This document shows, piece by piece, positions 18,363 to 34,048 of a DNA stretch of 64,000 nt. Position 1 is the first letter of the stretch; every line of letters starts with the position of its first letter. Origin of the DNA: Gammaproteobacteria bacterium (GTDB lineage: Bacteria > Pseudomonadota > Gammaproteobacteria > Eutrophobiales > Eutrophobiaceae); assembly GCA_963422205.2 (NCBI GenBank), contig CAXMWX010000011.1, positions 96,001 to 160,000 on the forward strand. Reading direction: 5' to 3'. The notes beneath the pieces are model-generated. The model saw only the letters and a program-made list of their open reading frames with translations. It ran no database searches and was not told the DNA's origin. Made by a program: the position numbers and the translations under genes.

Positions 18363-19766
18363 CTAGCCCTGCTCCCTGATGTCGACAAAATGGCCGGCAA
18401 CAGCGGCAGCGGCGGCCATCGCCGGGCTGACCAGATGCGTCCGCCCGCCCGGCCCCTGTCGGCCCTCAAAGTTACGATTCGATGTAGAGGCGCACCGCTC
18501 GCCCTGGTTGAGCCGGTCTTCATTCATGCCCAGACACATGGAACAGCCCGGCTCACGCCATTCGAACCCGGCCTCCAGAAAGAGCGTGTCCAGCCCTTCC
18601 TGCTCGGCCTGTTTCTTGACCACACCGGAACCCGGCACGATTAGCGCTTCGGTAATGTTGGCGGCAATTTTTCTTCCCGCTACCCGCTCGGCCGCCGCCC
18701 GCAGGTCTTCAATCCGTGAGTTGGTGCAGGAGCCGATAAAGACCTTGTCCACTTTGATATCCGTGATGGCCGTCCCCGGTTGCAAATCCATATAGGCCAG
18801 GGCCTGCTGCATGCCCTCTCTTTTTACCGGGTCGGCTTCTTTTTCCGGGTCGGGCACTACGCCTGTCACTGGTACCACCATCTCCGGTGACGTACCCCAG
18901 GTGACAGCCGGGGCGACATCGGCGGCATCGATCTCAAGCACGGCATCGAATCGGGCATCAGGATCAGAGTGCAGTGTCCGCCAGCAGGCAACGGCCTGCT
19001 CCCATAGATCACCGGTTGGCGCAAAAGGCCGACCTTTGACATACTCAATGGTCTTCTCATCCACCGCCACCATGCCGCTGCGGGCGCCCGCTTCAATCGC
19101 CATATTACACAGCGTCATGCGTGCCTCCATGCTCAATGCGGTGATGGCATCGCCAGCGAACTCGATGACAAACCCGGTGCCGCCCGCCGTCCCTGTTTTG
19201 CCGATGATATGCAGGATCAGATCCTTGGCGCTGACATGCTCGGCCAACCTCTGGTTGACCTTGACCAGCATATTCCTGGCCTTCTGCAACGGCAGGGTCT
19301 GGGTCGCCAGCACATGCTCTACCTCTGAAGTGCCGATACCGAAGGCCAGCGCGCCCAGGGCGCCGTTGGTCGTGGTGTGGGAATCGCCACAGACGATGGT
19401 CATGCCGGGCAGGCAAGCCCCCTGCTCCGGCCCCATCACATGCACAATGCCCTGACGTTCATCATGCAGTTCAATATGAGGAATGCGCCAGTGTTTTACA
19501 TTCTTGTCCAGCGTCTGTAGCTGCAATTTCGACACCGGATCACCGATCACAGCCCGGTCCCTGGTCGGCACATTATGATCCGGCACGGCGATGTTGGCAG
19601 ACAAACGCCAGGGTTGCCGACCGGCCAGCCTCAGGCCCTCAAAGGCCTGCGGCGAGGTCACTTCATGGATGATGTGTTTGTCAATGTAAATGAGACAGTT
19701 GCCATCGCCCGTATCCTGCACAAGATGATCGTCCCACAGCTTGTCGTAGAGTGTTCTGGCAGTCAT
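18363..19766 (-). CDS. leuC: 3-isopropylmalate dehydratase large subunit
   Basis: [46 protein letters not shown]. Confidence 0.96.
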
Positions 19767-19818
19767 CGCCCTATCATAACCCAATCACGGGAAAACACAG
19801 CATCCTGCCTGCTTTTAG

Positions 19819-22392
19819 CTAATTGAATTGATAGGAGACTTCCACCATCCAGCGACGTTCGTTGCCCGGATGGATAAAGGCCCCGCCAAATTCGGGCGCC
19901 GGAATGACCTCAGCCAGATAATCGGTATCCAGCAGATTTTTCACGACACCATGCAGCCCCCAGGTATCGCTTTCAAGGCCAGCACGCAGGTTCACCAGGC
20001 TGTAGGAATCACGGGTGGCGTTGGTCTGGTTGGCAAAGCCAAAATTCAGCCCGGTGAACAAGGTCGGTGTTCTGTCGCCCTCCTGGACTTCGGCAAAACG
20101 CGTTGGCCCGACTGCGGCATAATCAAACCGGCCGACAAACTCCACGCCATCAAGAAAACCGCTGGGCTTAATCCACTCAGCCCCCAGATTAAAGGTGTAT
20201 TCAGGCGCATAAGGCACCCGGTTGCCTGCCGTCTGCGGACGATTGCGGTTCTCATCAATGCGCGCATTGGTGGCGGCCACACCGCCGTAGATACGAAGGG
20301 CATCATTAAGCTGCACACTCAGCGCATATTCCGCCCCGGTGATGCTGACCTCATCAATATTCGATACCACACGCAACAAGCCGAACGGGCCGACAAAGAA
20401 GTTGAATATCTGCATGTTATCAACCAGCGTGTGATAGATCGCCCCCTCCATGCTGACCCGGCCATCGGCAAACGTGGATTTAAAGCCCACTTCAAACGCA
20501 TTGGCTATCTCTTTCTCAAAGCTGTCGCTGATCGTCAGGCCCGCACCAGTTGCCGAGCCCGGATTAAATTCCGCGGCATTAAAGAATAGATTGACAGTCG
20601 CCTGACTGCCCTGATTGTTAAACCCGCCGCTCTTAAAGCCGACGCCCCAGCTCCCGAAAAAAGTCCAGTTCTCATTGGCATTCCAGCGCAGGCTGATCTT
20701 CGGTTGCAACTCCTTAAAGGTCTGCTGCCGGTCGGGGATGCTCTGACGGATCGTGCAGTTGTTGTTGGCATCAATGCTGAGAAAGGCCGGGTTCAGCGGC
20801 GAGCCCTGGCCATCGCCCAGGCCCTGGCAAGGCACCAGCCCCAGCGGAAAGAGCTGAAAGGCATCGGTGTAATCGATAAAATCGGAGGTCTGCGTATCCG
20901 GTGCGGGCACCAATGATGTCACTTCGCGCTTTTCCCGGTCATAGCGAAGGGCAGCGGCGAGCTCAATCTCCTCAGTGACATCAAAAGCCACCTGACCAAA
21001 CACGGCAAGGACTTCCGTGTCGAAACGATCGTACACCAGGGCCTCGGTGGCCGGCCCGATCAAGGCCCGCTGTAATTCAGCACCAGCGACAAAACCAACG
21101 CCGGGATCTTCTATGGTAGCCACACCCACCTCACGCTCCAGGTTCAGATAATACCCGCCCAACTGCCAGCGCAAGCGCTGCTCGCCCGGCGAGGTTAAGC
21201 GCAGTTCAAAGCTGATGTCTTCCTGGTTGCGCTCCTGCCATTGCCCTCCATCACAGGTGGTCGGTGTGTAGGGGCCAAGCAGGTTGAGCGGACTGTTGAC
21301 GATGCCAGTGTTGTTCTGCGGCGATGGCAGCGGATCGGTCATGACTGTTGATGCCAGCGTTGCGATGCAGTTCGGCTCTGCATTAAAAAAACCAAAGGCG
21401 GCGCTGGTGCCATCGGCCAGGAAGGATTGATCGATGTCGCTGTACAGCAACCAGCCGGTGGCTGTTGCCCAGCCCATGTCATAATCTGTCTTGATGGACA
21501 GATCGAACGACTGCTGCTCATTTTCCGGACGGATGTTGGGCTGAAAGACAAATTCATGCGTGTTGACATCCTCATCCAGCAGCGAGTTGCCAAAGGCATT
21601 GGCCGCATCTTCCAAGTGAAATGCCACATTAAATGAAATGGAAGCCGCATCCACCTCGCCGTAATGGGCGCGCAAGTCCACGCTGAGATCCTCACTTGGC
21701 TGCCACAGCAAGCGGCCATTGATGTTGTAATTTTCAAAGTCATCGACGATGTCCCTGCCCGGACTGGCACCGACATTGACGTTGTTATAAAAACCATCGG
21801 TCGTCCGGTAGTCGACATGCAAGCGGCCAGCCAGATCATCGGTCAGGCCACCGCCAGCTTGTGCTGACACATAATAGCTGTTGTCGCTGCCGCCCGTGGC
21901 GCGGATACCTGCACTCGCCTCCTGCACCGGCTTTTTCGTGGTCACGATAACAGCACCGGCGGCGGCGCTGCGGCCATACACCGCCCCCTGCGGCCCTTTC
22001 AGAATTTCAATCTGCTGCAAGTCGGCAAACTCGCGGTTAAACGCACTGGGGTTGGTGTAGAGGATGCCATCGACAATAAAGGCAAAGTTCGCTTCCGCAT
22101 CTCGGGAGCCATTGATACCACGAATACTCACCTGTGCATCGCCTACCTCGGCGGTGTCGACAAAACTCACGCCTGGCGTCAGGGCAATAAAATCCTCGGC
22201 ACGCTCGATGGCCGCACGTTCGATCTCACCGGAGGTAAACGCCGTGATTGTCGCCGGCACATCGGTCAGCACCTCTTCACGCTGGCGGGCGGTCACGATA
22301 ATCTCTTCAATCTGTGCCGATACCGGCAGGGTGATCAGGTAGCTGGCCGCACCGCTGGCAAGCAACAGGCAGTACGTGGTTAATGGTTTCAT
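19819..22392 (-). CDS. TonB-dependent outer-membrane receptor
   Basis: Signal peptide, TonB box EEIIVTAR, plug IEILKGPQGAVYG, C-terminal VSYQFN; RBS ggagga. Confidence 0.95.
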   Translation of the reverse strand: MKPLTTYCLLLASGAASYLITLPVSAQIEEIIVTARQREEVLTDVPATITAFTSGEIERAAIERAEDFIALTPGVSFVDTAEVGDAQVSIRGINGSRDAEANFAFIVDGILYTNPSAFNREFADLQQIEILKGPQGAVYGRSAAAGAVIVTTKKPVQEASAGIRATGGSDNSYYVSAQAGGGLTDDLAGRLHVDYRTTDGFYNNVNVGASPGRDIVDDFENYNINGRLLWQPSEDLSVDLRAHYGEVDAASISFNVAFHLEDAANAFGNSLLDEDVNTHEFVFQPNIRPENEQQSFDLSIKTDYDMGWATATGWLLYSDIDQSFLADGTSAAFGFFNAEPNCIATLASTVMTDPLPSPQNNTGIVNSPLNLLGPYTPTTCDGGQWQERNQEDISFELRLTSPGEQRLRWQLGGYYLNLEREVGVATIEDPGVGFVAGAELQRALIGPATEALVYDRFDTEVLAVFGQVAFDVTEEIELAAALRYDREKREVTSLVPAPDTQTSDFIDYTDAFQLFPLGLVPCQGLGDGQGSPLNPAFLSIDANNNCTIRQSIPDRQQTFKELQPKISLRWNANENWTFFGSWGVGFKSGGFNNQGSQATVNLFFNAAEFNPGSATGAGLTISDSFEKEIANAFEVGFKSTFADGRVSMEGAIYHTLVDNMQIFNFFVGPFGLLRVVSNIDEVSITGAEYALSVQLNDALRIYGGVAATNARIDENRNRPQTAGNRVPYAPEYTFNLGAEWIKPSGFLDGVEFVGRFDYAAVGPTRFAEVQEGDRTPTLFTGLNFGFANQTNATRDSYSLVNLRAGLESDTWGLHGVVKNLLDTDYLAEVIPAPEFGGAFIHPGNERRWMVEVSYQFN

Positions 22393-22502
22393 CGTTCATC
22401 TCCTCCAGTTAAGCGATGGCATGGCATTTTAAGTTGCTTATATACAACATATCGCATACGGGTTTTTAAAGTCGTTGTATTTATAACATAACCCGTCATT
22501 TT

Positions 22503-22514
22503 AATGTATACATT
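22503..22514. promoter_or_regulatory. Putative GntR operator (AATGTATACATT palindrome)
   Basis: Perfect 12-bp palindrome between the divergent TonB receptor and gntR; variants at 22438-22447 and 22637-22646. Confidence 0.65.
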
Positions 22515-22666
22515 CGATGTTATCACCACTTTTCTGATCATCTCTCCCATATCGCTGATTTATTTATGAAAATACCCTGTATGTTGAATCATGCTGACTG
22601 TTGCTCACGTTATCTGGCTGGAGAAATCGTGTTTTTATGTATACGATCAGCAGGGGAGGGGAGGCC

Positions 22667-23350
22667 ATGTCGAAAGCCGTTGAAAAAGCCTATCAACTGA
22701 TCAGGGAGCGGATACTGTCCGGCGACTATGCGCCGGGCTCTCACTTAAAAGAGGAGGCCATCTCCGAGGAGGCGGCCGTCAGCCGTACGCCGGTGCGGGA
22801 AGCCCTGCGCCGATTGAGCAATGAGCAGTTGGTCAAGTTTATCCCCAACCAGGGGGCCTATGTCAATTCCTGGGATGAGGACGATGTGGATGTGATTTAT
22901 GATCTGCGTATCATGCTGGAAGGCTATTCGGCCGCCCGGGCGGCACAGCGCATATCCAATGAAGAGATCGTCGAATTGGAGGAGTGCATCACAGAGATCG
23001 AAAAGCTGTGTGAACAACACTCAAAAGAAAACCACAGGCGCACGATTGAGCATAACCATCGCTTCCACAGCATCATCATTGAGGCGGCCAGCAGTGAGCG
23101 GGTGCATAAAATGCTGGGCTGGCTGGTCGAGATCCCGATGCTGTTAAAGACAATCGAGCAATACAGTGATGCGGATGTGGAGAGAAGCAATAACCATCAT
23201 CGCGAGATCGTCGCGGCGTTTAAGGCCAGAGACAGCGACTGGGCCCGCAGCGTCATGCAGACACATCTGCGTGCCGCTTACCAGATTTATACCCATGCCG
23301 CACCAAACCGCAAGGCCCATCAGACAATGCCATCTTACTCTGCGCCCTGA
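22667..23350 (+). CDS. GntR/FadR-family transcriptional regulator (FCD domain)
   Basis: VSRTPVREAL HTH, NHRFH and HHREIV FCD motifs; RBS ggagg. Confidence 0.93.
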   Translation: MSKAVEKAYQLIRERILSGDYAPGSHLKEEAISEEAAVSRTPVREALRRLSNEQLVKFIPNQGAYVNSWDEDDVDVIYDLRIMLEGYSAARAAQRISNEEIVELEECITEIEKLCEQHSKENHRRTIEHNHRFHSIIIEAASSERVHKMLGWLVEIPMLLKTIEQYSDADVERSNNHHREIVAAFKARDSDWARSVMQTHLRAAYQIYTHAAPNRKAHQTMPSYSAP

Positions 23351-23398
23351 TCTGCTGTTGCCCCGTGTTACCCGGGCAAACAACCCCATAGCGATGCC

Positions 23399-23992
23399 TT
23401 ATAATGATACGATATGTTCCAGGACGGCATGGCTATCCAGCACCTCGCCATACTTAGCCTGGATGTCAAACAGATTCGCCTCGTGTGCCTTGGGATTTCT
23501 ATCCCCCACTGCCTGCCTTGGCACAAACACGGCAAAGTCGTGCTGCAACGCATCCACGGCGGTTGCACGCACACACCCACTGGTCGTCAAACCGGTGACA
23601 ATCACAGTATCGGCCTGTTGTGTGCGTAGCTGTGCCGCCAAGTCGGTCTTAAAAAATGCGCTGGCCCAGTTTTTCTCGATGATTATCTCGTTATCCCGCC
23701 GCTGCAAGGCCGGATCGATTTGTACCCAATGGCTGTCAGGCTGAAGCACATTCAACGCAGGCAACTTTTGCCTGAACACCTTGGCCTGGGTCTCATGCCG
23801 GTAGATCACCGTGGTGAAAAATATCGGCAGGGATTTGTTCCGGGCGGCCTCAAGCAATGTTTGATTGGCCGCAACCACCGCCGGGCAGTCTGATCCCAAA
23901 GGACATTCAGGATCGGTAAACCCGTTGATCACATCAACAATCACCAGGCCCGGCCGACGGCCGAGATCAAGTGCGGTTTTTTCCAGATCCAT
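23399..23992 (-). CDS. Isochorismatase-family amidohydrolase (N-carbamoylsarcosine amidase / maleamate amidohydrolase-like)
   Basis: IVDVINGF, EKNWASAFFKT, GLTTSGCVRATAVDA (Asp-Lys-Cys triad), ANLFDIQAKYGEV. Confidence 0.9.
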   Translation of the reverse strand: MDLEKTALDLGRRPGLVIVDVINGFTDPECPLGSDCPAVVAANQTLLEAARNKSLPIFFTTVIYRHETQAKVFRQKLPALNVLQPDSHWVQIDPALQRRDNEIIIEKNWASAFFKTDLAAQLRTQQADTVIVTGLTTSGCVRATAVDALQHDFAVFVPRQAVGDRNPKAHEANLFDIQAKYGEVLDSHAVLEHIVSL

Positions 23993-24025
23993 TCAGCCCG
24001 GAGCCAGCGAGCGATACAAATCGGT

Positions 24026-25879
24026 TCAAAAACGGGGGGAGGCAGGTGCAGGCAGATGTGTCTCATCCAGCGCCCTGGATTTTATCTCATCAATCGTGCC
24101 GCCGAAATCGAACAACGCCGGCTCGCCCCGCACACCACGCAACTCATCTCGCAAGGCCGTGGTGGCCGCCTCATCCACCTCACCATCGGCATTGATCACA
24201 ACACCATAACGCGCTGCCCCGTCCCGGGTGACAATGCCACGCAGCACATCCAGCCGGACAAGGGCCGGATCACGGGCATAGGGATCACCCCAGCCGCCGC
24301 CGCCCCAAGTCGTAAACTCCAGCAGATCGCCCGCCTTGACTGCAATATCCTCACACTTCGATGGCAACCAGGTATCCGTACCATCAGCCCGGATAAGGTG
24401 CTTGCTTGAACGTTGCCCGGGCTGGCCGCCATTAACGCCCCAGGGATAGGTCAGCCAGCGATCATCATGAATGGCGATCGTGCCATCGCAAAGAAACCGG
24501 TAGCCGACATTGAGCCCGTTACCGCCACGGTGCAGGCCCGCCCCGCCTGAATCAGGCACCGGCGCATAGTGTTCTATCCGCAAGGGAAAATAGGCTTCGA
24601 TAAACTCATTTGGTACGTTGGTAAAACCGGGCCAGAGTGAATGACCATCCGGGCCATCGCCGGCAGGGCGACCGGGAATGCCACCAAAGCCGATCTGAAA
24701 TAACTGGAACCACTCGCCATGATCATCGTAGCCGGAGTAGAACAGATGCGGACTGTCGGAAAAACCGGCCGCATTCAGCGCCTCTGGAGTACCCTGGCCT
24801 AATAACCCGCCCATCACGTCAAAAATTCTGCCCAGGGCATGGGTACGGCCGGACAAGGCCGCCGGATAATCCGGCTTTAACAAAGACCCTTTCGGTATGC
24901 GTACCTCCACCAGATCATAAAAACCATCATTGAACAGAATCTGCGGATCAAACAGATTAATCGTGAAGGCACCGAAGAACATCTTGAACATGCGCTCGCT
25001 TAAATAAAAATTAATCGAACTCTTCGCCTGGGGGTCGGTGCCGTCAAAATCGAAGATGGCAGTCGCACCTTCCCGCCAGAGCGTGCATTTAATTTTGTAC
25101 GGCCCCATGCCAACCCCATCATCACACAGATAATCTTCAAAGGTGCGCGGCTCCTCCGGCACGATCATCTCGATGATCTGTTTCATGGCGGCATGGTTGC
25201 GTTCCAGCATGATATCCATCGTGCTGTGAAAAATATCATCACCAAAACGCTCCGCCAGCTCAACACAGCGCTTTGCCGCCGTATTACATGCTGCGACCAG
25301 GGCATTAAGGTCAAACCGGTTCCATTGCGGTGTGCGTACGTTATGCAGGATCAACTCCAGCAAATCCTGCTGCAACACCCCTTGTTTATACAGCTTCACC
25401 GGTTTGATACGAATGCCTTCCTGGAAAATCGTCGCCGCATTGATGGGAATACTGCCCGGCACCATGCCGCCGTTATCGGACATGTGGCCGAACATGGCCG
25501 ACCAGGCGATGTGCCGTTGCTGCTTGAAGATCGGCACCAGCACGATCCAGTCGGGCAGATGCGATACCGCACCATCACACATATACGGATCATTGGTCAG
25601 AATGACATCACCTTCTTCAATCTCCTCATCGTATGCCTGCATCAGGCCATGAATAAACGAGCCAAACTGGCCGACCACCATCTTCCCCTCACGGTTAGCC
25701 ACCATGGGAAAGCAGTCGCCCTGCTCCCGTATCCCTGGCGACATCGCCGTACGAAACAACACCGCATCCATCTCAACCCGCACATTACGCAGGGCATTTT
25801 CGATGATATCCACCGTCACGGTATCGACTTCAACCCGTTGCAGCGGGGTTTGATTTGCTTCAATAATTTTCGCTGGCAT
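24026..25879 (-). CDS. Hydantoinase B / oxoprolinase-family subunit
   Basis: RTAMSPGIRE, TNDPY...SHLPD, HMSDNGGMVPGS, DSGGAGLHRGG, TWGGGGWGDP. Confidence 0.92.
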   Translation of the reverse strand: MPAKIIEANQTPLQRVEVDTVTVDIIENALRNVRVEMDAVLFRTAMSPGIREQGDCFPMVANREGKMVVGQFGSFIHGLMQAYDEEIEEGDVILTNDPYMCDGAVSHLPDWIVLVPIFKQQRHIAWSAMFGHMSDNGGMVPGSIPINAATIFQEGIRIKPVKLYKQGVLQQDLLELILHNVRTPQWNRFDLNALVAACNTAAKRCVELAERFGDDIFHSTMDIMLERNHAAMKQIIEMIVPEEPRTFEDYLCDDGVGMGPYKIKCTLWREGATAIFDFDGTDPQAKSSINFYLSERMFKMFFGAFTINLFDPQILFNDGFYDLVEVRIPKGSLLKPDYPAALSGRTHALGRIFDVMGGLLGQGTPEALNAAGFSDSPHLFYSGYDDHGEWFQLFQIGFGGIPGRPAGDGPDGHSLWPGFTNVPNEFIEAYFPLRIEHYAPVPDSGGAGLHRGGNGLNVGYRFLCDGTIAIHDDRWLTYPWGVNGGQPGQRSSKHLIRADGTDTWLPSKCEDIAVKAGDLLEFTTWGGGGWGDPYARDPALVRLDVLRGIVTRDGAARYGVVINADGEVDEAATTALRDELRGVRGEPALFDFGGTIDEIKSRALDETHLPAPASPRF

Positions 25880-25889
25880 CGGCTGCTCC

Positions 25890-27947
25890 TCACGGCATGG
25901 GCTTGATGATCAGATTGCCCTGGCTGTCGACTGTTGCATCATGAGCGGGTAACACCACCGTGGTTGAATCCATTTCAACGATCACCGCCGGGCCGGGAAT
26001 GACCAGCCCTTCATGCAGTTTCATTCGCTCATAAATCACGATATCGAGCCACTGGCCATCGTAGAAATACTGGCTGTCCTTGATTTTGCAATCCTCAAGG
26101 CGGGTGCCCGCCTCGCCGGTTTTAAGATCAGCCAGCGCTTTTGACCGGGCCTTGACGATAGCGCGAATCATGACGATCTCATGGCCCTCGCCCAGGGCAA
26201 AGGTGAACAACTGCTCATGTTCGGCATCAAACCTGGCCGTCAGGCCAGCGATGCCATCCCGCTTCAGTTGCTCCTCGGTGAAATCCAGCGTGATCTGATA
26301 CGCCTGGCCGGTATAACGCAGATCGGCCTGATAAAGCACTTCCCAGTCAGTCGCCGCAATACCATCGGCCTGCAAAGAGGCCGATGCTCTGTCTTTCAGC
26401 GCCTTTAGATCAGCAAGCAATGTGTCAGTGCCCGCCTCCCTGGCCATGGTGACAGAAGTACGGGCGGCCTCATCCTGCACCTGTGTGGTCGCATCACCAT
26501 AGGCACACAACACCCCCGGCCCGGGCGGCACGATCACCGGCCAGGCCCCGCTCAATACCCCCAGGGCATTGGCATGCAGGGGCCCAGCACCCCCAAAACC
26601 GACCAGGGAGAAATCACGCGGGTCATGCCCCTGCTCAACCGAGACCAGGCGCAGGGCGCCGAACATGGCCTCGTTGACGATCTTGATGATGCCCTCAGCC
26701 GCCGCCATCAGACCAATCTCCATGGCATCGGCCACTTTTTGCACGGCTTTCTCGGCGGCCTGTTTGTTGATCGCCATCGCACCGCCCAGTTGCACATCGG
26801 CAGGCAAATACCCCAGCACCACATTGGCATCACACACCGTCGGCTCCTGCCCGCCTTTCATATAGGCCGCCGGCCCCGGCACCGCACCTGCCGATGCCGG
26901 CCCGACCCGAAGCGCCCGGGTCAACTCCGGCACAAACGCAATCGAGCCGCCGCCCGCCCCGATGGTACGCACATCCATTGAAGGGGCACGTACCCGGACA
27001 TCGCCAACGATGGTCTCACGCCTGACCTGTGCCTTGCCCTGCTGGATCAGGGCAACATCGGTGGATGTCCCTCCCATATCCAGCGTCATGATGTTCTCAT
27101 AACCCGCCCGGCGACAGAAGTAGAGCGCACCCGCCACCCCGCCAGCCGGCCCGGACATGAGCAGATTCACCGGCGATTCAGCGGCGGCACGGCCAGATGC
27201 CAGGCCACCATCAGAGCGCAGGATAGATAACGCCACCTCACCCATCTTGTCCTGCAGGGCGGTTTGCAGATTGGTCACATAATTTGCCACTTCAGGGCGC
27301 ACATAGGCATTGACGACTGTGGTCTCGGTGCGCTCGTATTCCTGCATCTCCGGCACCACGGCACTGGAGATGGAGACAGGGATGTCGGTGAAGATCTCGC
27401 GTGCGATTGCCGCGGCTCTGGTTTCATTCTCACCATTGATATATGCGTTGATAAAACAAATCGTCAGCGATTCCACTTCGTTACGGGCATGCAGAGCCTG
27501 CAAGGACTGGCGCAACGCCGCCTCATCCAGCGGCTTGATGATGGTGCCATCGGCCGCCATGCGCTCATCCGCCTCAACAGTGAGTTCCAGCGGGGCGAGC
27601 AAGGGTTTTTTGACATAGCTTACCCAGCCGCCGAGACCACCCGGACAGAATGAACGGGCAACCTGCAATATCTGCTTAAAACCCCTGGTTGTGACCAGAC
27701 CGACCCGGGAACCGCGCCCGGTCAGCACGGCATTGGTGGCCACCGTGGTGCCGTGCATGACCCGAGAGATAGCCGATGGATCAATACCGGATTGCTCGCA
27801 GATCCGGGCAATACCACCGAGCACGCCGAGAGAGGGATCCTCCGGTGTAGACGGCACTTTTACCGTGCAGGTCTGGCCAGTCTGCTCATTGATAAGCAGC
27901 AGATCAGTGAACGTGCCGCCGACATCAACACCCAGTCTGTAAGACAT
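25890..27947 (-). CDS. Hydantoinase A / oxoprolinase-family ATP-binding subunit
   Basis: GVDVGGTFTD, HGTTVATNA, SGPAGGV, DMGGTSTDV, FGGAGPLH. Confidence 0.93.
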   Translation of the reverse strand: MSYRLGVDVGGTFTDLLLINEQTGQTCTVKVPSTPEDPSLGVLGGIARICEQSGIDPSAISRVMHGTTVATNAVLTGRGSRVGLVTTRGFKQILQVARSFCPGGLGGWVSYVKKPLLAPLELTVEADERMAADGTIIKPLDEAALRQSLQALHARNEVESLTICFINAYINGENETRAAAIAREIFTDIPVSISSAVVPEMQEYERTETTVVNAYVRPEVANYVTNLQTALQDKMGEVALSILRSDGGLASGRAAAESPVNLLMSGPAGGVAGALYFCRRAGYENIMTLDMGGTSTDVALIQQGKAQVRRETIVGDVRVRAPSMDVRTIGAGGGSIAFVPELTRALRVGPASAGAVPGPAAYMKGGQEPTVCDANVVLGYLPADVQLGGAMAINKQAAEKAVQKVADAMEIGLMAAAEGIIKIVNEAMFGALRLVSVEQGHDPRDFSLVGFGGAGPLHANALGVLSGAWPVIVPPGPGVLCAYGDATTQVQDEAARTSVTMAREAGTDTLLADLKALKDRASASLQADGIAATDWEVLYQADLRYTGQAYQITLDFTEEQLKRDGIAGLTARFDAEHEQLFTFALGEGHEIVMIRAIVKARSKALADLKTGEAGTRLEDCKIKDSQYFYDGQWLDIVIYERMKLHEGLVIPGPAVIVEMDSTTVVLPAHDATVDSQGNLIIKPMP

Positions 27948-27967
27948 ACCATGCCCTCATTGTTATT

Positions 27968-28889
27968 TTACGTACAAGCCGCCGCCTGGACTGTATTCGG
28001 AAACACCCCTGCCCTGCTTACCATCGCCGGCATCGGGGTCGCCAGCGGCTGCTCCAGCCATTTTGCCGTGTCGATGATTTTTTCAATATCCACGCCCGTC
28101 TTTAACCCCATACGGTGAATCATATAGAGCAGGTCCTCGGTGCCGACATTGCCTGTGGCCGCCGGGGCAAACGGGCAACCGCCCACACCCCCCGCAGCTG
28201 GCATCGAAGATGCTGACACCTTCCATGATAGCCGCATACACATTCGCCACGGCCGTGTTGCGGGTGTTGTGAAAATGACAGCGCAGAGCAACATCCGGCA
28301 CCGCCCGTTGGGCCTGTTTGACCAGGCTGGCCACCTCGGCCGGCGTGGCCACACCGATGGTATCGGCCAGGGCGATCTCGGTAAATCCCATATCAGCCAG
28401 CCGCTGACACAGGCCGAGCACTTTGCCCGCCGGTATCTCTCCTTCGAATGGACAACCAAACGCCGCACTCACCGTCACCGAGCTACGCAGGGGGGTTGTC
28501 TGTATTTCTCTGGCGATCTCGGCAATGACCTGCATGGTCTGCTCGGTTGTTGCGTTCTGGTTACGCTGATTGAAGGTGTCTGACGCCACCACAGCACAGT
28601 TGATTTCATTGATGCGGCTGGCGGCGGCGCGCTCAAACCCGCGCCTGTTCAATACCAGCCCGATGTAGGTGACATCATCCCGTTCCGGCAGGCCGGCAAT
28701 CACCGCCTCGGCATCGGCCATTTGCGGCACCCGTTTGGGATTGACAAAACTCACCACTTCCAGGCGCCGTATGCCAGCATCGATCAGGCGGCTGATCAAG
28801 GTCAGTTTATGCGTTGTCTCCAGCAGCCTGGCCTGACTCTGCAAACCATCACGGGGAGCAACATCAATAATTTCGATAAAACCTGTCAT
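27968..28889 (-). pseudogene. HMG-CoA-lyase-family gene split by a one-base insertion in a G6 tract
   Basis: Frame A has DVAPRDGLQ...ALADTIG...HFHNTR...FDASCG; frame B continues GVGGCPFAPAATGNV; C6 run at 28188-28193. Confidence 0.85.
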
Positions 28890-28969
28890 GGCGTCTCTTA
28901 AGAACCCGCTTGCACTTGTTGAAGGCCAGATCATTTTAAGCCAAAGCCCTTGACAAGAGCTACTCGAAC

Positions 28970-29010
28970 AAATCAACTTATAAAATCAACTTAAACTTAT
29001 AAAATCAACT
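28970..29010 (+). repeat. Short direct repeats (aaatcaact x3) in a divergent promoter region
   Basis: aaatcaacttataaaatcaacttaaacttataaaatcaact. Confidence 0.6.
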
Positions 29011-29015
29011 CATAA

Positions 29016-29078
29016 TTGTATACAAAGAAAAGATATTAAGGCATAATAATGCCTTTTTTTTCCGATAAATGTATACAA
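29016..29078. promoter_or_regulatory. Two putative GntR operators (TTGTATACAA, ATGTATACAA)
   Basis: Motifs at 29016-29025 and 29069-29078 between the divergent lyase and CoA-transferase genes. Confidence 0.65.
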
Positions 29079-29106
29079 TAAATGACTCATCTACCTGCCA
29101 AACATC

Positions 29107-30321
29107 ATGAACCAGAGAGATGAATTACAACAGCGCGGCCCGCTGGCCGATGTCCGTGTCATTGAAATGGGTGTGCTTCTGGCCGGGCCGTTCTGTGGTC
29201 AGCTGCTGGGGGATTTCGGCGCCGAAGTCATCAAGATAGAACAGCCCGGGGTGGGCGATCCCATGCGTGAATGGGGTCAGGAAAAAGCCCAGGGGCATTC
29301 GCTGTGGTGGCCGGTCGTGGCGCGGAATAAAAAATCCATCACCTTGAACGCACGGGAAACCGAAGGCCAGCAGATCATCAAGCAGCTCGTGGCCGAGGCG
29401 GATATTCTGATCGAGAACTTCCGTCCTGGCACGATGGAGCGCTGGAACTTGAGCTATGAGGAGTTGGCAGAGATCAACCCGCGGCTGATCATGGTGCGTA
29501 TAACCGGCTTCGGTCAGACCGGCCCTTATGCCAAACAAGCCGGCTATGGCTCGATTGGCGAGGCGATGGGCGGGCTGCGGTTTGTGGTGGGTGATCCGGA
29601 CAAACCCCCCAGCCGCATGGGGATCAGCATTGGCGATGAGCTGGCCGCCACCTATGCCTGCCTGGGTGCCTTGAGTGCCTTGCATGTACGCCAGACCACC
29701 GGCCGGGGTCAGGTCGTTGATTCGGCGATTTATGAGGCCGTGTTTGCCATGATGGAGTCCTTGATCCCGGAATACCAGATCGGCGGCTATGTGCGCCAGC
29801 GCACCGGTTCAATTTTACCTAATGTGGCCCCGGCGAATGCGTATCCTGTCAAAGATGGTGACTATCTGGTCGCCGCCAACCAGGATACCGTCTTCAAACG
29901 CTTTGCTGAGGCCATGGGGCGCCCGGAACTGGCCGAGGATTCGCGTTACGCCACGCACACCGCCCGCGGCAGACACCAGCAGGAACTGGACGAGTTGATA
30001 TCTGCCTGGACACAAACCATGACAGCCGCCGAGTTGCGCGAGAAGATGAACGAACATGGCGTCCCCAGTGGCAAGATTTATACCGCGGCCGATATGCTGG
30101 AGGATGAGCACTTCGCTGCACGCCAGGCCATCGTCTCGGTGCCGCATACGCTGTTTGGTGAGTTGAAGATGCAGAACGTGTTCCCCCGCATGTCTGACAC
30201 GCAAGGCAAGGTGCGCTGGCCAGGCCCGGAGCTGGGCGAGCATAACAAGGAAATCTATCAGGACGTGCTGGGCATGGCGGATGAGCAGATAGCGCAGTTG
30301 AAAGAGAAAGGCGTTATCTAG
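29107..30321 (+). CDS. Class III CoA transferase (CaiB/BaiF family)
   Basis: AGPFCGQLLGDFGAEVIKIE, RNKKSITL, ENFRPG, GFGQTGPY, ISIGDE (catalytic Asp). Confidence 0.93.
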   Translation: MNQRDELQQRGPLADVRVIEMGVLLAGPFCGQLLGDFGAEVIKIEQPGVGDPMREWGQEKAQGHSLWWPVVARNKKSITLNARETEGQQIIKQLVAEADILIENFRPGTMERWNLSYEELAEINPRLIMVRITGFGQTGPYAKQAGYGSIGEAMGGLRFVVGDPDKPPSRMGISIGDELAATYACLGALSALHVRQTTGRGQVVDSAIYEAVFAMMESLIPEYQIGGYVRQRTGSILPNVAPANAYPVKDGDYLVAANQDTVFKRFAEAMGRPELAEDSRYATHTARGRHQQELDELISAWTQTMTAAELREKMNEHGVPSGKIYTAADMLEDEHFAARQAIVSVPHTLFGELKMQNVFPRMSDTQGKVRWPGPELGEHNKEIYQDVLGMADEQIAQLKEKGVI

Positions 30322-30434
30322 CGTTATCTGGGCGAGCATAACAAGGAAATCTATCAGGACGTGCTGGGCATGGCGGATGAGCAGATAGCGCAGTTGAAAG
30401 AGAAAGGCGTTATCTAGCGTTATCTGGGCGAGCA
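30232..30434 (+). repeat. Exact 96-bp tandem duplication of the CoA-transferase 3' end, plus an 11-bp third partial copy
   Basis: Units start with ctgggcgagca at 30232, 30328 and 30424. Confidence 0.95.
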
Positions 30435-30438
30435 GATG

Positions 30439-30837
30439 CTAAACCAGCACGTTTGACCCGCTCATATACACATACACTTCTTGGAATTTCTCATCGCGAA
30501 TACGCCAGAAATTGGTATTCTCCAGCCGGGTTTCGTTGCCATCCGTATCAACCAGCTCGGCCACAAAACTGGCGGCAATGCGACCATTGGCGGCATCTAC
30601 CGTGCAGGTAAAATCACGATGAATAATGGTCTCGTATGCGCCCATGAAATCAACAAACATGCGCCTGATCTCTGCCTTGCCGACATGGGTGGTGAAGGCC
30701 GTCTGTACGGTCAGCATGGCATTGTCATGAAAACAATCCAACACGGCATCCAGTGCCTTTTTATCCACATTACCGAAGTATTTGTGTATCGCCAGATCGA
30801 TCAGGCCATCGCCATCCAAACGTGATGGATATTGCAT
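30439..30837 (-). CDS. NTF2/SnoaL-like protein
   Basis: YFGNVD...VLDCFHDNA, ENTNFWRI, EVYVYMSG. Confidence 0.8.
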   Translation of the reverse strand: MQYPSRLDGDGLIDLAIHKYFGNVDKKALDAVLDCFHDNAMLTVQTAFTTHVGKAEIRRMFVDFMGAYETIIHRDFTCTVDAANGRIAASFVAELVDTDGNETRLENTNFWRIRDEKFQEVYVYMSGSNVLV

Positions 30838-30852
30838 AATTATCTCCTCGCC

Positions 30853-31248
30853 TTACTTCAGCAGGTTCTCGCCGCTCATATAGACAAACACACGGCTGAA
30901 TTTTCCCTCATGCAGATAGAAACGATTACAGTTTTCATAACGCTGTAGCTCACCGGTCGCCTTTGGCACGACTTCAACGGAGAACTGCGAGCATATCGCC
31001 TGTGCCTGCGTGTCCACCGTATGGACAAAGTTGCCATGCCAGATCCGGCTGTGTGCATCAAACAGGCCAACGAACATCGCCTTGATCGCATCCATGCCAT
31101 CGTGCAAGGTGTTGGAGGTCATCTCCCGTAACGTGGCATCGGCGTGAAAACAATCCAGCACCCGCCCCATGTCGTCATTATCCACCCCGTGAAAATAACG
31201 CTTGGTGACGATGTCCACATAGTAGTCGTAGTGATAGTCGCTCATCAT
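30853..31248 (-). CDS. NTF2/SnoaL-like protein (paralog of the downstream gene)
   Basis: YFHGVD...VLDCFHADA, ENCNRFYL, RVFVYMSG. Confidence 0.8.
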   Translation of the reverse strand: MMSDYHYDYYVDIVTKRYFHGVDNDDMGRVLDCFHADATLREMTSNTLHDGMDAIKAMFVGLFDAHSRIWHGNFVHTVDTQAQAICSQFSVEVVPKATGELQRYENCNRFYLHEGKFSRVFVYMSGENLLK

Positions 31249-31278
31249 GCTAACCTTAGGGTCTGTTGTATTGATCGA

Positions 31279-32034
31279 TCACGCTGGCTTTTGGATGCGA
31301 GAGAGAATCATCGCATCATTCGGTTTTTCAGGGCTGGGGAAGGCCCGCTTGCTGTGGCTGAGGTTGAGTTGCAGATACATCTCACACAGCTTGTAGGCCA
31401 CCTGCCCCGGATTGATCACCGGCACGGGTAATCTCTCGGCCAGATAGCCGTGCGACTGGTGCATGGTGGTTGAGCCCAGCACGATCACACTGGCCGCATC
31501 CTCATTGATCGCCCGCAGGCTTTCCTGTTCCAGTTGCTTAAAAACCCCCTCTTCCTTGCCCTCCAGAAGTTCCTGCAGGTCCGGCCGGGTTTTGATCGAG
31601 CGCAACGAGGCACAGCGATGCTCAAGCCCGTACTCTTTCAGCGTCTTGGTGTACAGCGGAAACCATTCATCCCACATGGTGATCACGGAGAACCTGTGTC
31701 CCAGACAACAGGCGATATGGAAGGCCGCCTGCCCCGGCCCGACAACCGGTATCAAGAGCCTGGAACGCAGGGCATACATGCCGGAATCACTGACCGTATC
31801 AATGCACACAGCCGCATAGCCCTCTTCCTCCGCCTGGAGACCCGCTTCAAAGACGCTCATGTCCATAAGCAGCGTATCGTAGTAGCTGTCGCCCAGCGCC
31901 GCCCCCCAACTGACAGCGACAAAATCAACCTCCGCCCCTGGCATCAGCAGGTCTTTCGGTAATTGTGATGCCCGGTTATCAACACCTGCCTGATCCATGG
32001 GAACAGGCACGATAATCTTGATTTTTTTTGTCAT
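31279..32034 (-). CDS. Asp/Glu/hydantoin racemase-family protein
   Basis: AEEEGYAAVCIDTVSDSG, IPVVGPG, IVLGSTTM, VPVINP. Confidence 0.85.
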   Translation of the reverse strand: MTKKIKIIVPVPMDQAGVDNRASQLPKDLLMPGAEVDFVAVSWGAALGDSYYDTLLMDMSVFEAGLQAEEEGYAAVCIDTVSDSGMYALRSRLLIPVVGPGQAAFHIACCLGHRFSVITMWDEWFPLYTKTLKEYGLEHRCASLRSIKTRPDLQELLEGKEEGVFKQLEQESLRAINEDAASVIVLGSTTMHQSHGYLAERLPVPVINPGQVAYKLCEMYLQLNLSHSKRAFPSPEKPNDAMILSRIQKPA

Positions 32035-32100
32035 AACCCAAGCCCTTGCGACTTGACTAATGCAGTAAGCTAAGAACGGCACTCTATCATCTTTGTTATA

Positions 32101-32110
32101 TTGTATACAA
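32101..32110. promoter_or_regulatory. Putative GntR operator TTGTATACAA upstream of the racemase operon
   Basis: Perfect 10-bp palindrome ~66 nt upstream of the start codon. Confidence 0.65.
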
Positions 32111-32314: not shown

Positions 32315-34048
32315 TCAAGCCTGCCAGCAATCTGCCCTCTGGTGGTTTTTGATCTGGCCTGTGTCCTCCTGCTTGCCCTCATCCCCACGCTCATCTTGAG
32401 GCAGGTAGAACCAGCGAATTTGCCTGGCGCTTTTCGACAGCGTGATGTTGCCAACGGGTCCGGGGGCCTCAACGCCAGCCAAACGCCTTTCCGCTTCACC
32501 CAGATAAGGCGTCAGCCGCTTCGGCCGGTTTACTTCATTGGACGATGACCCTCTGCCCACCTCCTGAAAATCCCACTCACCAAGGCCGGCGTTCAGTGTA
32601 CGCCTGTTTGCATGGTAGACCCAGATCCCGGTCGCCTCATCATAATCGTAATAAGACAACAGCTTCCAGCCTTGTTCGGCAATCAGTTCAATGGCACGAA
32701 TGATATAGTCAGTTGTTTCCGTATCGAAAAAATAATTAAAACTCAATCGCACCCAGCCAGGCCGCATGATGCTGTTTCCCCGCAAGACCTGCTGTTCCAG
32801 TTGCAGGCTGTATTCGCTGTCCATACCCAATAAGTCGTGGGCATAGGGGCCGGCACAGGAGCAGCCGCCGCGCGCCTGAATACCAAATAAATCATTGAGC
32901 AATGCAACGATAAAGCCGTAGTGAAGATATTTATCAAGGCGCTTGATCTGAAAAGACAGTATTGCCAGCCGTTCAGCCTCCGGGTTGCCGAGAATTTCAA
33001 TGCAGGGATGTGGAAGGAGTCGGGATATGGACTGTCGGATCAAGGATTGTTCGCGTTGCTCAATTTCCTCCATGCCGACTGCCTGTTGTAATTTGAAGGC
33101 CAGGCCAGCACGAATGGCACCGATAATGTCAGGCGTACCCCCCTCTTCACGCTTTTCAGGATCATCATGATAGACATGGTGCCCGGGGCTGACATAGCGG
33201 ACAGTACCGCCGCCGGGCACCACCGGCGTGGTATTTTTGATCAGCGATTTTTTGACCACCAGGATGCCAGAGCTGCCTGGCCCGCCAACGAATTTATGCG
33301 GCGAGATAAAAACCGCATCCTTGCCAGTATCGCCTTCCGGCCCCTGCCGACCCAGCATGTCTATGCGGGTATACGGTGCGGCGGCGGCATAGTCCCAGCA
33401 GGCATAGGCGCCATGTTTCTTTAAAAGGCGAGTGATCCGATCGGTGTCCGTTTTAATACCGGTGACGTTGGATGCGGCCGAGAAGCTGCCTATCTTCACT
33501 GGCCGGTGTACTGAGGCGATCAACACCTGTTCCAGTTCAGCGATGTCAATATGTCCGTCTTTATTCAGTGAAATCCTGACCAGTTCCACTTGGCTTTCCC
33601 GCCAGGGCAGCTCGTTGGAATGGTGCTCATAAGGGCCGATCAATACCAGCGGAGTCTCCGGATTGCCGGCAGGTTTTGAAGACATATACCCCTGCTCAGC
33701 GCGTGACAGACACAACAGACCAATCAGCTTGTGAACCGCCGCCGTTGCACCCGCACCGCAGAACAAGACGCAGTAATCCTGGCTGGCATTGACCGCCTGG
33801 CTGATGATTGCCCTGGCTTGTTCCATATAGGCCGTGGTCTGTGCGCCGCTGTAAGAGCTTTCTGTGTGCGTATTCGCATAGCAAGGCAACACCTGCGCGC
33901 AAATAAAATCCTCAATGAAAGACAGCGCCCGACCCGAGGCCGTGTAGTCGGCATAGACCAGCGGCCTTGAGCCAAACGGTGTTTGAAACAAGGCGTGCTC
34001 ACCTATCACCGAATGACGAATTTGATTAATCAGCTTCTGCTGGTGCAT
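32315..34048 (-). CDS. Class V PLP-dependent aminotransferase / cysteine-desulfurase-like protein
   Basis: YADYTASGR, GPYEHHSNELPW, SAASNVTG, FISPHKFVGGPG, RGGCSCAGPY. Confidence 0.9.
   Translation of the reverse strand: MHQQKLINQIRHSVIGEHALFQTPFGSRPLVYADYTASGRALSFIEDFICAQVLPCYANTHTESSYSGAQTTAYMEQARAIISQAVNASQDYCVLFCGAGATAAVHKLIGLLCLSRAEQGYMSSKPAGNPETPLVLIGPYEHHSNELPWRESQVELVRISLNKDGHIDIAELEQVLIASVHRPVKIGSFSAASNVTGIKTDTDRITRLLKKHGAYACWDYAAAAPYTRIDMLGRQGPEGDTGKDAVFISPHKFVGGPGSSGILVVKKSLIKNTTPVVPGGGTVRYVSPGHHVYHDDPEKREEGGTPDIIGAIRAGLAFKLQQAVGMEEIEQREQSLIRQSISRLLPHPCIEILGNPEAERLAILSFQIKRLDKYLHYGFIVALLNDLFGIQARGGCSCAGPYAHDLLGMDSEYSLQLEQQVLRGNSIMRPGWVRLSFNYFFDTETTDYIIRAIELIAEQGWKLLSYYDYDEATGIWVYHANRRTLNAGLGEWDFQEVGRGSSSNEVNRPKRLTPYLGEAERRLAGVEAPGPVGNITLSKSARQIRWFYLPQDERGDEGKQEDTGQIKNHQRADCWQA

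Follow-up and report, generated by a model that had tools for sequence, protein, structure and literature searches.

The stretch of DNA analysed here, called the window below, comprises 64,000 nucleotides of a gammaproteobacterial genome (assembly GCA_963422205.2, contig CAXMWX010000011.1, positions 96,001 to 160,000 of the forward strand) and carries at 19819-32110 a cluster of ten genes centered on a pair of the HyuA/HyuB type. The cluster is real and jointly regulated, and its relatives range from marine bacteria to salt-lake archaea. We put the chances at even that its genes form an uptake and breakdown regulon that GntR represses and that serves a small cyclic imide; the substrate would most likely be a five-membered ring of the maleimide or citraconimide type. 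The grouping of the genes goes beyond chance, because the core synteny is kept in relatives and an operator-like palindrome is restricted to the promoter regions of the locus.

All ten genes, with the families and positions given in a preliminary description made from the letters of the sequence, were borne out by the list of open reading frames (ORFs), Pfam and NCBIfam. A TonB-dependent outer-membrane receptor for uptake is encoded on the minus strand at 19819-22392. Its Pfam matches (Plug, 63.5 bits; TonB_dep_Rec_b-barrel, 127.1 bits) are those of a plug with a 22-strand barrel; every NCBIfam model remained below its cutoff, and the substrate class is not assignable from these models. The regulator gene gntR follows on the plus strand (22601-23350), and the N-terminal GntR winged-helix and C-terminal FCD ligand domains found by Pfam place its product in the FadR/FCD subfamily. 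The next four genes lie on the minus strand and encode an isochorismatase-family cysteine amidohydrolase for the "half-amidase" step (23399-23992; Pfam Isochorismatase, 135.6 bits), the metal-dependent, hydrolytic HyuB-type subunit (24026-25879; Hydantoinase_B, 492.8 bits), the ATP-binding HyuA-type subunit (25890-27947; Hydant_A_N, Hydantoinase_A and Hydant_A_C) and an HMGL-like lyase, whose frameshifted gene extends over 27968-28889 according to tblastn in two frames (original ORF 28083-28976). A class III (CaiB/BaiF) CoA-transferase is encoded on the plus strand at 29107-30321 (CoA_transf_3). On the minus strand again are two SnoaL/NTF2-like paralogs (protein 1, 30439-30837, SnoaL_2, 37.5 bits; protein 2, 30853-31248) and an Asp_Glu_race-family protein (31279-32082, probable start at 32034; 99.7 bits). 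Gene spacing suggests five transcription units: the receptor gene, possibly together with the adjoining leuC and leuD genes described below; gntR; the lyase gene, hyuA, hyuB and the amidase gene, with gaps of 10-33 bp; the CoA-transferase gene; and the racemase-like gene followed by those of SnoaL proteins 2 and 1, with gaps of 15-30 bp. Scans for terminators (25 found versus 15.4 in shuffled sequences) and for promoters (12 sites versus 11.6) do not define operons, and base composition does not set the locus apart from the rest of the window.

A scan of one genome per species gave at least 577 pattern matches and at least 551 confirmed HyuB relatives. The best 80 of these were kept (numbered with the prefix L), and the window proteins were compared with them by tblastn (E < 1e-8, at least 50% query coverage); 47 of these loci were fully flanked, with at least 7 kb on both sides of HyuB, and are counted separately below. 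HyuA is found beside HyuB in 76 of the 80 loci (47 of the 47 fully flanked), the CoA-transferase in 57 (42), the lyase in 56 (41) and the amidase in 54 (34). The core of the system consists of these five proteins: HyuA, HyuB, the isochorismatase-type amidase, the class III CoA-transferase and the HMG-CoA-lyase-family lyase. CoA-transferase, lyase and amidase occur together beside HyuB in 41 loci, 31 of them fully flanked, so the lack of co-occurrence in other genomes that would have undone the grouping in the preliminary description was not seen; two fully flanked loci, L005 and L032, carry none of the three. Receptor homologues of 39-51% identity adjoin HyuAB in 45 loci (27), LeuC in 12 (11), an FCD-type GntR in six (5) and the racemase-like and SnoaL genes in three (2). 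HyuB itself is 59-88% identical to the 80 relatives and is highly conserved, with more than 120 protein clusters at 81-88% identity, mostly from uncultured Gammaproteobacteria. Carriers include Woeseiaceae, Porticoccaceae, Halieaceae, Alteromonadaceae, Colwelliaceae, Cellvibrionaceae, Pseudohongiella, Lysobacterales, Caulobacter, Mesorhizobium, Nocardioidaceae and Ferrimicrobium.

The core is also carried on plasmids. A protein search of PLSDB gave 342 plasmid records with relatives, and eight were inspected. Together with HyuA and HyuB, a conjugative plasmid of Acidiphilium multivorum JZ-6 encodes a GntR regulator, lyase, CoA-transferase and amidase, and a plasmid of Novosphingobium capsulatum encodes the same four and a receptor. 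Plasmid pGYMC5201 of Geobacillus sp. Y412MC52 has a sigma-54 regulator, amidase, CoA-transferase and lyase and, past an IS element, leuC and leuD. The Rubrobacter indicoceani plasmid has GntR, CoA-transferase and amidase without the lyase. In the two haloarchaeal records the enzyme for the terminal C-C cleavage is replaced by members of other families: Haloterrigena alkaliphila has the CoA-transferase, the amidase and an isopropylmalate/citramalate-synthase-like protein (260 bits, LEU1_arch), and Natronomonas pharaonis PL131 has the amidase and a methylisocitrate-lyase-like protein (230 bits) without the CoA-transferase. Co-occurrence of the core extends in this way over Pseudomonadota, Actinomycetota, Bacillota and Halobacteria.

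Co-regulation of the locus had been proposed, and it is backed by the palindrome TGTATACA, which was found in all three promoter regions, that of the accessory racemase-like/SnoaL module included. Exactly four sites are present in the 64 kb of the window, all within these regions: at 22505-22512 between the receptor gene and gntR, at 29017-29024 and 29070-29077 in the divergent lyase/CoA-transferase promoter region, and at 32102-32109 upstream of the racemase-like/SnoaL operon. The number expected by chance was 0.45, and none of 100 shuffles reached four. The receptor/gntR region holds in addition a degenerate copy, TTATATACAA, at 22438-22447, and TTGTATACAA or a close variant of it is common to the three regions. 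When a 10-mer palindrome with two mismatches was allowed, 18 sites were found versus 15.2 expected, and the motif was no longer distinctive. The site at 22505 overlaps a promoter-like match on the minus strand (22526-22498), and the site at 29017 overlaps one on the plus strand (29019-29047). Operators of the FadR/FCD subfamily follow a palindromic consensus of the T.GT...AC.A type, and because the palindrome looks like such an operator, joint regulation that includes the accessory module is supported. The 8-mer is present in 9 of the 80 related loci. Locus L006, the closest complete relative, has it upstream of the racemase-like gene, twice between the CoA-transferase and lyase genes and twice upstream of the receptor gene; the pair at 6853 and 6905 is equivalent to the window pair at 29017 and 29070, and the site at 1812 is 64 bp upstream of the racemase-like orthologue. 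The motif stands at comparable places also in L062, L063, L027, L009 and L074. The FCD-type GntR homologues of the six loci mentioned above are 38-44% identical to the window regulator, and regulators vary among loci, with GntR/UTRA proteins in 22, PrpR-type sigma-54 activators elsewhere and GntR/FCD in loci of the window type. The divergent region (28890-29106) also contains a perfect hairpin, AAGGCATAATAATGCCTT, at 29038-29055 between the two operator-like sites, and direct repeats of the form CTTATAAAATCAACT lie upstream; these could be binding sites of a second regulator.

HyuA has the ATP motifs DVGGTFTD at position 8, DMGGT at 290 and GAVPGP at 354 of the ASKHA type, corresponding to the DxGGTxTD, DxGGT and GxxPGP motifs of HyuA-type subunits in a report on caprolactamase (PMC8453981). 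When HyuB was aligned with the CapB structure 6yra_B, equivalents of all four CapB metal ligands (Asp41, His99, Asp102 and His124) were found to be kept; in the same report, the A subunit of caprolactamase phosphorylates the substrate with ATP and the B subunit carries out hydrolysis (PMC8453981). Among solved structures the best relative of HyuA is N-methylhydantoinase (442 bits), and those of HyuB are N-methylhydantoinase 7hk5 (250 bits) and then CapB (177 bits). Scores of 250 and 442 bits over about 600-680 residues represent a distant kinship, and NCBIfam matched no model for the N-methylhydantoinase family. The caprolactamase equivalog cutoff of NCBIfam was missed as well (531 bits for CapA and 191 bits for CapB versus 1000).

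The amidase keeps the Asp-Lys-Cys triad in alignments with 26st, 4l07, 1nba and 3ot4 (Asp in "vivDving", Lys in "iieKnwa" and Cys in "ttsgCvrat"); in the 4l08 entry the catalytic Cys position carries a Cys-to-Ala mutation. Its scores are spread over the N-carbamoylsarcosine amidohydrolase 26st (163 bits), 4l07/4l08 (132 bits), 1nba (131 bits) and 3ot4/3uao (112 bits), and no NCBIfam equivalog cutoff was reached. We take 4l07/4l08 and 3ot4/3uao to be maleamate amidases; on these identities, assumed or named, the substrates of the relatives are four-atom amic or ureido acids that end in a carboxamide. Since a conserved amidase comes right after ring opening, the opened ring would end in a carboxamide, as happens only with an imide or a ureide. 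A lactam, an imide or a hydantoin had been put forward as the cyclic amide; the imide and the ureide are retained here and the lactam is given up. Caprolactamase and 5-oxoprolinase do resemble the window pair in their two subunits, ATP motifs and metal ligands (PMC8453981). The opening of a simple lactam gives an amine, however, which leaves the linked amidase without a substrate, and the CapA and CapB cutoffs are not reached by the window proteins.

An imide seems preferable to a ureide because a ureide gives an amino acid, and the core lacks an aminotransferase or deaminase and has a CoA-transferase of the dicarboxylate type. The imide also leans on loci in which another amidase is found: in L016, where no isochorismatase gene could be detected, HyuAB has an AtzE-family amidase as a neighbour, and the same AtzE-family cluster occurs in L034, L039 and L064. 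PuuE-like proteins and allantoinase/dihydropyrimidinase-like hydrolases recur near HyuAB in relatives, which we infer to speak for an imide too; PuuE-like proteins belong to the cyclic-imidase family according to a study of Aspergillus nicotinate catabolism (PMC9304392).

The CoA-transferase matches CoA_transf_3 over its full length (428 bits, profile positions 1-366 of 366). No NCBIfam equivalog cutoff was reached (290 bits versus 750 for succinate-glutarate CoA-transferase, the best model, and then 273 versus 442 and 257 versus 700), and all matches are dicarboxylate transferases. Its solved relatives are the CaiB/BaiF protein 4ed9 (252 bits) and the succinate-hydroxymethylglutarate CoA-transferase 9br7 (227 bits). 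A perfect tandem duplication (30232-30434, plus strand, 2.1 copies, 100% identity) takes in the final 96 bp of the gene together with its stop codon. It leaves the protein unaffected because the first stop is used, and it is either a recent event or an assembly artefact. The assignment of the lyase to the HMG-CoA-lyase family holds; the gene is split in this assembly. A comparison by tblastn with the homologues of L006 and L062 placed a +1 frameshift in a run of G near 28186-28191, with the first frame reading from ATG 28889 to about 28185 and the second from 28198 to the stop at 27968, so that the C-terminal 67 residues are in the second frame. The coding strand has six G in this run where L006 reads as five, and the two parts are 65% and 70% identical to the L006 lyase; a sequencing error in the homopolymer and a real pseudogene are equally likely. 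The N-terminal ORF scored 261 bits on PRK05692, the HMG-CoA lyase subfamily (cutoff 246), intact homologues scored 307-318 bits, both sequence types of the lyase pass this cutoff, and the nearest solved relatives are HMG-CoA lyases.

A LeuCD-type hydratase had been overlooked in the preliminary description. The leuC-like gene of the large subunit (18363-19784, minus strand) adjoins the receptor gene on the same strand with a 34-bp gap, and the leuD-like gene of the small subunit (17691-18329, minus strand) is directly downstream of it. Both products are NCBIfam equivalogs (LeuC, 756 bits versus a cutoff of 560; LeuD, 246.8 bits versus 116). The pair may belong to the locus and could equally be housekeeping. 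LeuCD-like pairs next to HyuAB were found in 12 of the 80 loci in at least seven arrangements, and also on the Geobacillus plasmid. Alteromonas sp. A079 (L049) has an uninterrupted run of ten genes on one strand, which encode a VOC-fold protein, a PrpR-type regulator, the receptor, CoA-transferase, lyase, HyuA, HyuB, amidase, LeuC and LeuD. L062 and L063 have LeuD-LeuC-amidase-CoA-transferase opposite lyase-HyuA-HyuB-GntR; LeuCD here comes immediately downstream of the genes for amidase and CoA-transferase and shares their strand. The leuC score does not separate a housekeeping from a pathway copy, because cluster-linked copies pass the cutoff as well (738, 718 and 636 bits; the copy of L004 fails with 543) and so does the plasmid-borne Geobacillus copy, whose 812 bits exceed the score of the window LeuC; the high score of the latter was for this reason dropped as proof of a housekeeping role. 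In a tree of 13 rows the window LeuC is sister (99/98 support) to the HyuAB-linked LeuC of L032 and L046 and not to E. coli LeuC, a placement which, with E. coli as the sole housekeeping reference, is suggestive of a link to the HyuAB-associated copies.

Taken as a pathway, these genes would work as follows. The TonB-dependent receptor would import the cyclic imide. HyuA would phosphorylate a ring carbonyl with ATP and HyuB would hydrolyse the activated ring to an amic acid, that is, the mono-amide of a dicarboxylic acid, from which the isochorismatase-type cysteine amidase would release ammonia to leave maleate or an alkylmaleate. A LeuCD-type Fe-S hydratase would then hydrate this acid to an alkylmalate, for instance (R)-citramalate; the hydratase could come from the window leuCD genes, and elsewhere from a dedicated paralog or the housekeeping enzyme. 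The class III CoA-transferase would convert the alkylmalate to its CoA ester, and the HMG-CoA-lyase-family enzyme would cleave the ester to acetyl-CoA or another acyl-CoA and a 2-oxo acid, for example pyruvate. The TTGTATACAA-like palindromes of all three promoter regions are the predicted binding sites of the FCD-type GntR, which an acid of the pathway would probably release. A substituted malate as intermediate is suggested by the HMGL-family lyase, which would cleave the acid in the form of a 3-hydroxyacyl-CoA, by the recurrence of LeuCD and by the replacement enzymes of haloarchaea, which belong to the alkylmalate-synthase and isocitrate-lyase families. Ring opening, deamidation and cleavage of a hydroxy-diacid had been proposed before, and the gene substitutions between phyla point the same way. 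A methylmalonyl-CoA-epimerase-like VOC protein (65 bits, cutoff 115) encoded in 13 loci hints at a 2-methyl-branched CoA ester.

The enzyme families are all known, and the logic of imide to amic acid to diacid has precedents. LeuCD-type hydratases act on 1,2-dicarboxylic acids of the maleate type and not on glutarates, and housekeeping LeuCD handles citraconate and citramalate. In Chloroflexus, (R)-citramalate is used by a class III CoA-transferase and a lyase of the HMG-CoA-lyase family, the same pair of families as in the window, which gives acetyl-CoA and pyruvate; the likeness is by family only, and the Chloroflexus pair serves a CO2-fixation cycle whereas the window pair stands in a nitrogen-heterocycle catabolic cluster. 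Succinyl-CoA:(R)-citramalate CoA-transferase (EC 2.8.3.20) and (R)-citramalyl-CoA lyase (EC 4.1.3.46) are known enzymes, and LeuC-type enzymes have maleate hydratase activity (PMC8307300). The middle of the proposed route resembles the maleamate branch of nicotinate, nicotine and picolinate degradation, where an isochorismatase-fold amidase (NicF/Ami) likewise converts a cis-amic acid to maleate. In that branch, however, the amic acid comes from dioxygenolytic cleavage of a pyridine and maleate is isomerised to fumarate by NicE, whereas the window locus has no maleate isomerase and the acid would be hydrated, CoA-activated and cleaved. Nicotinate fermentation by Eubacterium barkeri employs a LeuCD-type dimethylmaleate hydratase and a dimethylmalate lyase of the isocitrate-lyase family. 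The LeuCD-type enzyme there turns an alkylmaleate into the alkylmalate, which is cleaved in turn, and the lyase step is mirrored by the Natronomonas variant with HyuAB, amidase and an isocitrate-lyase-family protein; the E. barkeri maleate arises from a carbon-skeleton rearrangement and not from an imide, however, and no CoA ester is involved. Cyclic imides are degraded independently of ATP by the imidase and half-amidase of Blastobacter. Aspergillus nidulans has the cyclic imidase HxnM and the amidase HxnN (PMC9304392). These pathways share with the proposed one the conversion of a cyclic imide to an amic acid and then to a dicarboxylic acid and ammonia, and PuuE-like genes of the imidase family stand beside HyuAB in some relatives. 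The window locus differs from them in the ATP-dependent opening by HyuAB, the isochorismatase fold of the amidase and the CoA-dependent C-C cleavage.

Several points weigh against the imide reading. To our knowledge, imidase pathways need no ATP, and the reading leaves an ATP-dependent imide opening unexplained. The best solved relatives, N-carbamoylsarcosine amidohydrolase and N-methylhydantoinase, favour a hydantoin, and the likeness of the CoA-transferase and lyase to a SUGCT-type transferase and HMG-CoA lyase favours the C6 acid 3-hydroxy-3-methylglutarate, as does the position of the cluster next to liu-type genes of leucine catabolism in Porticoccaceae. Of the 80 loci, 68 lack LeuCD, among them L006 (none within 10 kb), the window LeuC scores as a canonical LeuC, and the window lyase gene is frameshifted in this assembly. 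Finally, relatives have two types of CoA-transferase (57-77% versus 25-29% identical to that of the window) and two types of lyase (45-65% versus 34-41%), and the lower pathway is therefore not established as orthologous in all loci.

The first of the two alternatives raised by these points is a hydantoin (ureide) pathway of the creatinine/N-methylhydantoin type, which we regard as unlikely. HyuAB would here produce an N-carbamoyl amino acid, with the amidase as the carbamoylase; the racemase-fold protein would equilibrate 5-substituted hydantoins, and the CoA-transferase and lyase would handle an unusual acid or side chain. Creatinine degradation via N-methylhydantoin does have the same order of families, an ATP-dependent opening of the HyuA/HyuB type followed by an isochorismatase-fold cysteine amidohydrolase, and the structural relatives N-methylhydantoinase (250 and 442 bits) and N-carbamoylsarcosine amidohydrolase (163 bits) fit it. 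RefSeq labels the Novosphingobium homologue "N-carbamoylsarcosine amidohydrolase", the racemase-fold protein is nearest to allantoin and hydantoin racemases among solved structures, and allantoinase/dihydropyrimidinase-like and AtzE-like genes are present in some neighbourhoods. The product would be an amino acid, however, and the conserved core has neither an aminotransferase nor an oxidase or deaminase. Pfam, NCBIfam or both were applied to 38 of the 58 window ORFs, and among these neither a creatinine deaminase nor a sarcosine oxidase or other sarcosine-oxidising enzyme was seen near the locus. The recurrent CoA-transferase and HMGL-family lyase, LeuCD and the alkylmalate-type substitutes of haloarchaea have no place in the creatinine route, and the racemase-fold protein lacks both catalytic cysteines and occurs in only three of 80 relatives.

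The second alternative, a glutarimide-type pathway, appears improbable to the same degree. A ring like 3-hydroxy-3-methylglutarimide would be opened and deamidated to 3-hydroxy-3-methylglutarate, which a SUGCT-like transferase would convert to HMG-CoA and a true HMG-CoA lyase would split to acetoacetate and acetyl-CoA. The scores of the lyase (261 bits) and its homologues (307-318 bits) above the HMG-CoA lyase cutoff of 246, its best solved relatives and the likeness of the CoA-transferase to succinate-hydroxymethylglutarate CoA-transferase (227 bits) are as this pathway predicts. Seven loci of the Porticoccaceae type (L022, L026, L029, L036, L043, L044 and L047) abut genes typical of leucine catabolism, namely some or all of those for acyl-CoA dehydrogenase, MerR and carboxyltransferase, although this adjacency is limited to one family and represents one event. 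Aspergillus nicotinate catabolism provides a cyclic imidase and an amidase that act on a hydroxyglutarimide (PMC9304392). The amidase of the window, on the other hand, has characterised relatives that take four-atom and not five-atom amic acids. LeuCD-type hydratases do not act on glutarates, so that LeuCD is left unexplained, the haloarchaeal substitutes are alkylmalate-type enzymes, and such an imide has no natural source known to us.

It is very unlikely that HyuAB works as an ATP-dependent carboxylase like those for acetone or acetophenone, with neighbours that process a beta-keto acid: the superfamily is the same and there are weak matches to acetophenone carboxylase (124-281 bits) and acetone carboxylase (60-225 bits), but these are far below the NCBIfam equivalog cutoffs of 1250-1500, the nearest relatives are hydrolases, no gamma or epsilon subunit family was matched in Pfam or NCBIfam among the ten genes and their flanks, and the tightly linked amidase has no part in carboxylation. 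A chance neighbourhood of ten independent genes, to which the rarity of the racemase-like/SnoaL genes (3 of 80) and of FCD-type GntR (6 of 80) in relatives and the change of regulators between lineages (GntR/UTRA, PrpR-type sigma-54 activators, GntR/FCD) might point, has next to no likelihood given the palindrome confined to three promoter regions and the co-occurrence of the core across Pseudomonadota, Actinomycetota, Bacillota and Halobacteria.

If the substrate is an imide, its source may be found among tetrapyrroles. Methylmaleimide, methyl-ethyl-maleimide, methyl-vinyl-maleimide and hematinic acid, the candidates that may come into question, are oxidative breakdown products of chlorophyll and haem and are on record from senescent leaves and from the sediments of lakes (PMC7318184). 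They fit because their opening would yield the alkylmaleates that the proposed scheme requires. We regard salvage of maleimides from oxidised chlorophyll, haem and bilins as an unlikely proposal in its specific form. The receptor may scavenge such maleimides, HyuAB and the amidase may convert them to dialkylmaleates and ammonia, and hydration of the LeuCD type followed by CoA-dependent or isocitrate-lyase-type cleavage may give acetyl- or propionyl-CoA and pyruvate, 2-oxobutyrate or 2-oxoglutarate. The carriers, for the most part bacteria from phototroph-rich, illuminated waters and including bloom-associated marine Gammaproteobacteria, Caulobacter, sphingomonads and haloarchaea, would fit such salvage, and so would the fact that these imides occur in nature, the VOC epimerase-like gene in 13 loci and the PrpR-type regulators, whose family senses methylcitrate.

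The racemase-like and two SnoaL genes form an accessory module. They travel together in the window, L006, L016 and L053, directly after HyuB in L053 and after the receptor in L016. The preliminary description counted them as part of one co-regulated locus; the shared operator-like site upholds this, and membership in the conserved core does not follow, as the module is present in only 3 of 80 relatives. Similarly, the name Asp/Glu/hydantoin racemase is correct as to fold and family and not as to function, since Thr96 and Ser204 occupy the positions of the two catalytic cysteines in alignments with 3qvj and 5lfd. Both residues are invariant in 4 of 4 orthologues, and a canonical two-thiol racemase role is doubtful on these alignments. 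The solved relatives are allantoin and hydantoin racemases (70-75 bits). A role as maleate isomerase was rejected, as all four PDB matches (E <= 0.01) are hydantoin or allantoin racemases and the cysteines are absent. The protein probably starts at Met17 (32034), as three orthologues do. The SnoaL paralogs are 38% identical to each other, and orthologues of protein 1 with 70-75% identity occur in L006, L016 and L053. A PDB sequence search with the SnoaL protein gave no significant match, and the ESM Atlas gave only generic family labels for one SnoaL protein and the racemase-fold protein. The module may convert a related ring compound into the substrate of the core. In L006 it is followed by a zinc-dehydrogenase-family gene; the same locus has two further NTF2-like (DUF4440/SnoaL_3) genes at 16659-17504 after the receptor gene, and an F420/LLM-class oxidoreductase and a DUF2141 protein are encoded between the amidase and the receptor.

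A second HyuAB architecture (63-84% identity) was seen in L002, L004, L005, L032, L046, L056, L072, L074-L076 and on the Sphingomonas sp. JE1 plasmid. It has genes for a class I SAM-methyltransferase-like protein of about 400 residues and a protein of about 125 residues without a Pfam match, which are directly upstream of hyuA in L002, L004 and L005, and it often lacks the CoA-transferase and lyase. The sphingomonad versions have, besides these genes, others for FAD oxidoreductases, a zinc dehydrogenase and a succinate-semialdehyde dehydrogenase. The last two of the inspected plasmid records have HyuAB in a context that differs from the core: Sphingomonas sp. JE1 (L082) carries the methyltransferase-like gene with these same dehydrogenase and oxidoreductase genes, and Sphingobium sp. 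TomTYG65, where the locus starts at base 1 of the record, encodes a fumarate-reductase-type flavoprotein, a hypothetical protein, a quinone oxidoreductase and a succinate-semialdehyde dehydrogenase. The second architecture may be a different pathway with the same ring-opening enzyme. A block that recurs beside HyuAB in L032, L028, L046, L056 and L067 encodes a Crp-type regulator, two aldehyde dehydrogenases, a PuuE-like protein, an arylmalonate-decarboxylase/EutA-like protein and an FAD monooxygenase. Its make-up resembles that of an upper pathway through which a different N-heterocycle would enter the same core.

A class V aminotransferase of 577 residues (32315-34048) is encoded immediately upstream of the racemase-like operon and in the same orientation. 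It is SufS-like at 149 bits versus a cutoff of 475 and far longer than SufS, and no homologue was found in any of the 80 related loci; it is probably outside the system. Far from the locus, at 47652-49967, a Ser/Thr protein kinase of 771 residues with a PknD/PknB-like N-terminal domain is encoded.

No description of this gene set, or of its coupling to a CoA-dependent alkylmalate cleavage, was found in open-access literature and bioRxiv, where there was also nothing on strains JZ-6 or JE1; subscription journals may hold one. With HyuB relatives at no fewer than 551 places among genomes taken one per species, and in 342 plasmid records, this is a widespread gene set without an assigned pathway. 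If the imide reading is true, it would supply a missing catabolic route in which ATP-driven imide opening is coupled to alkylmalate cleavage, and would give a function to genes now misleadingly annotated as "oxoprolinase", "N-methylhydantoinase", "HMG-CoA lyase" and "3-isopropylmalate dehydratase". If the more specific tetrapyrrole proposal is true, the locus would be the first genetic route from the photo-oxidation products of pigments to central metabolism. With a candidate operator, a regulator and several cultured carriers now in hand, the question is directly testable.

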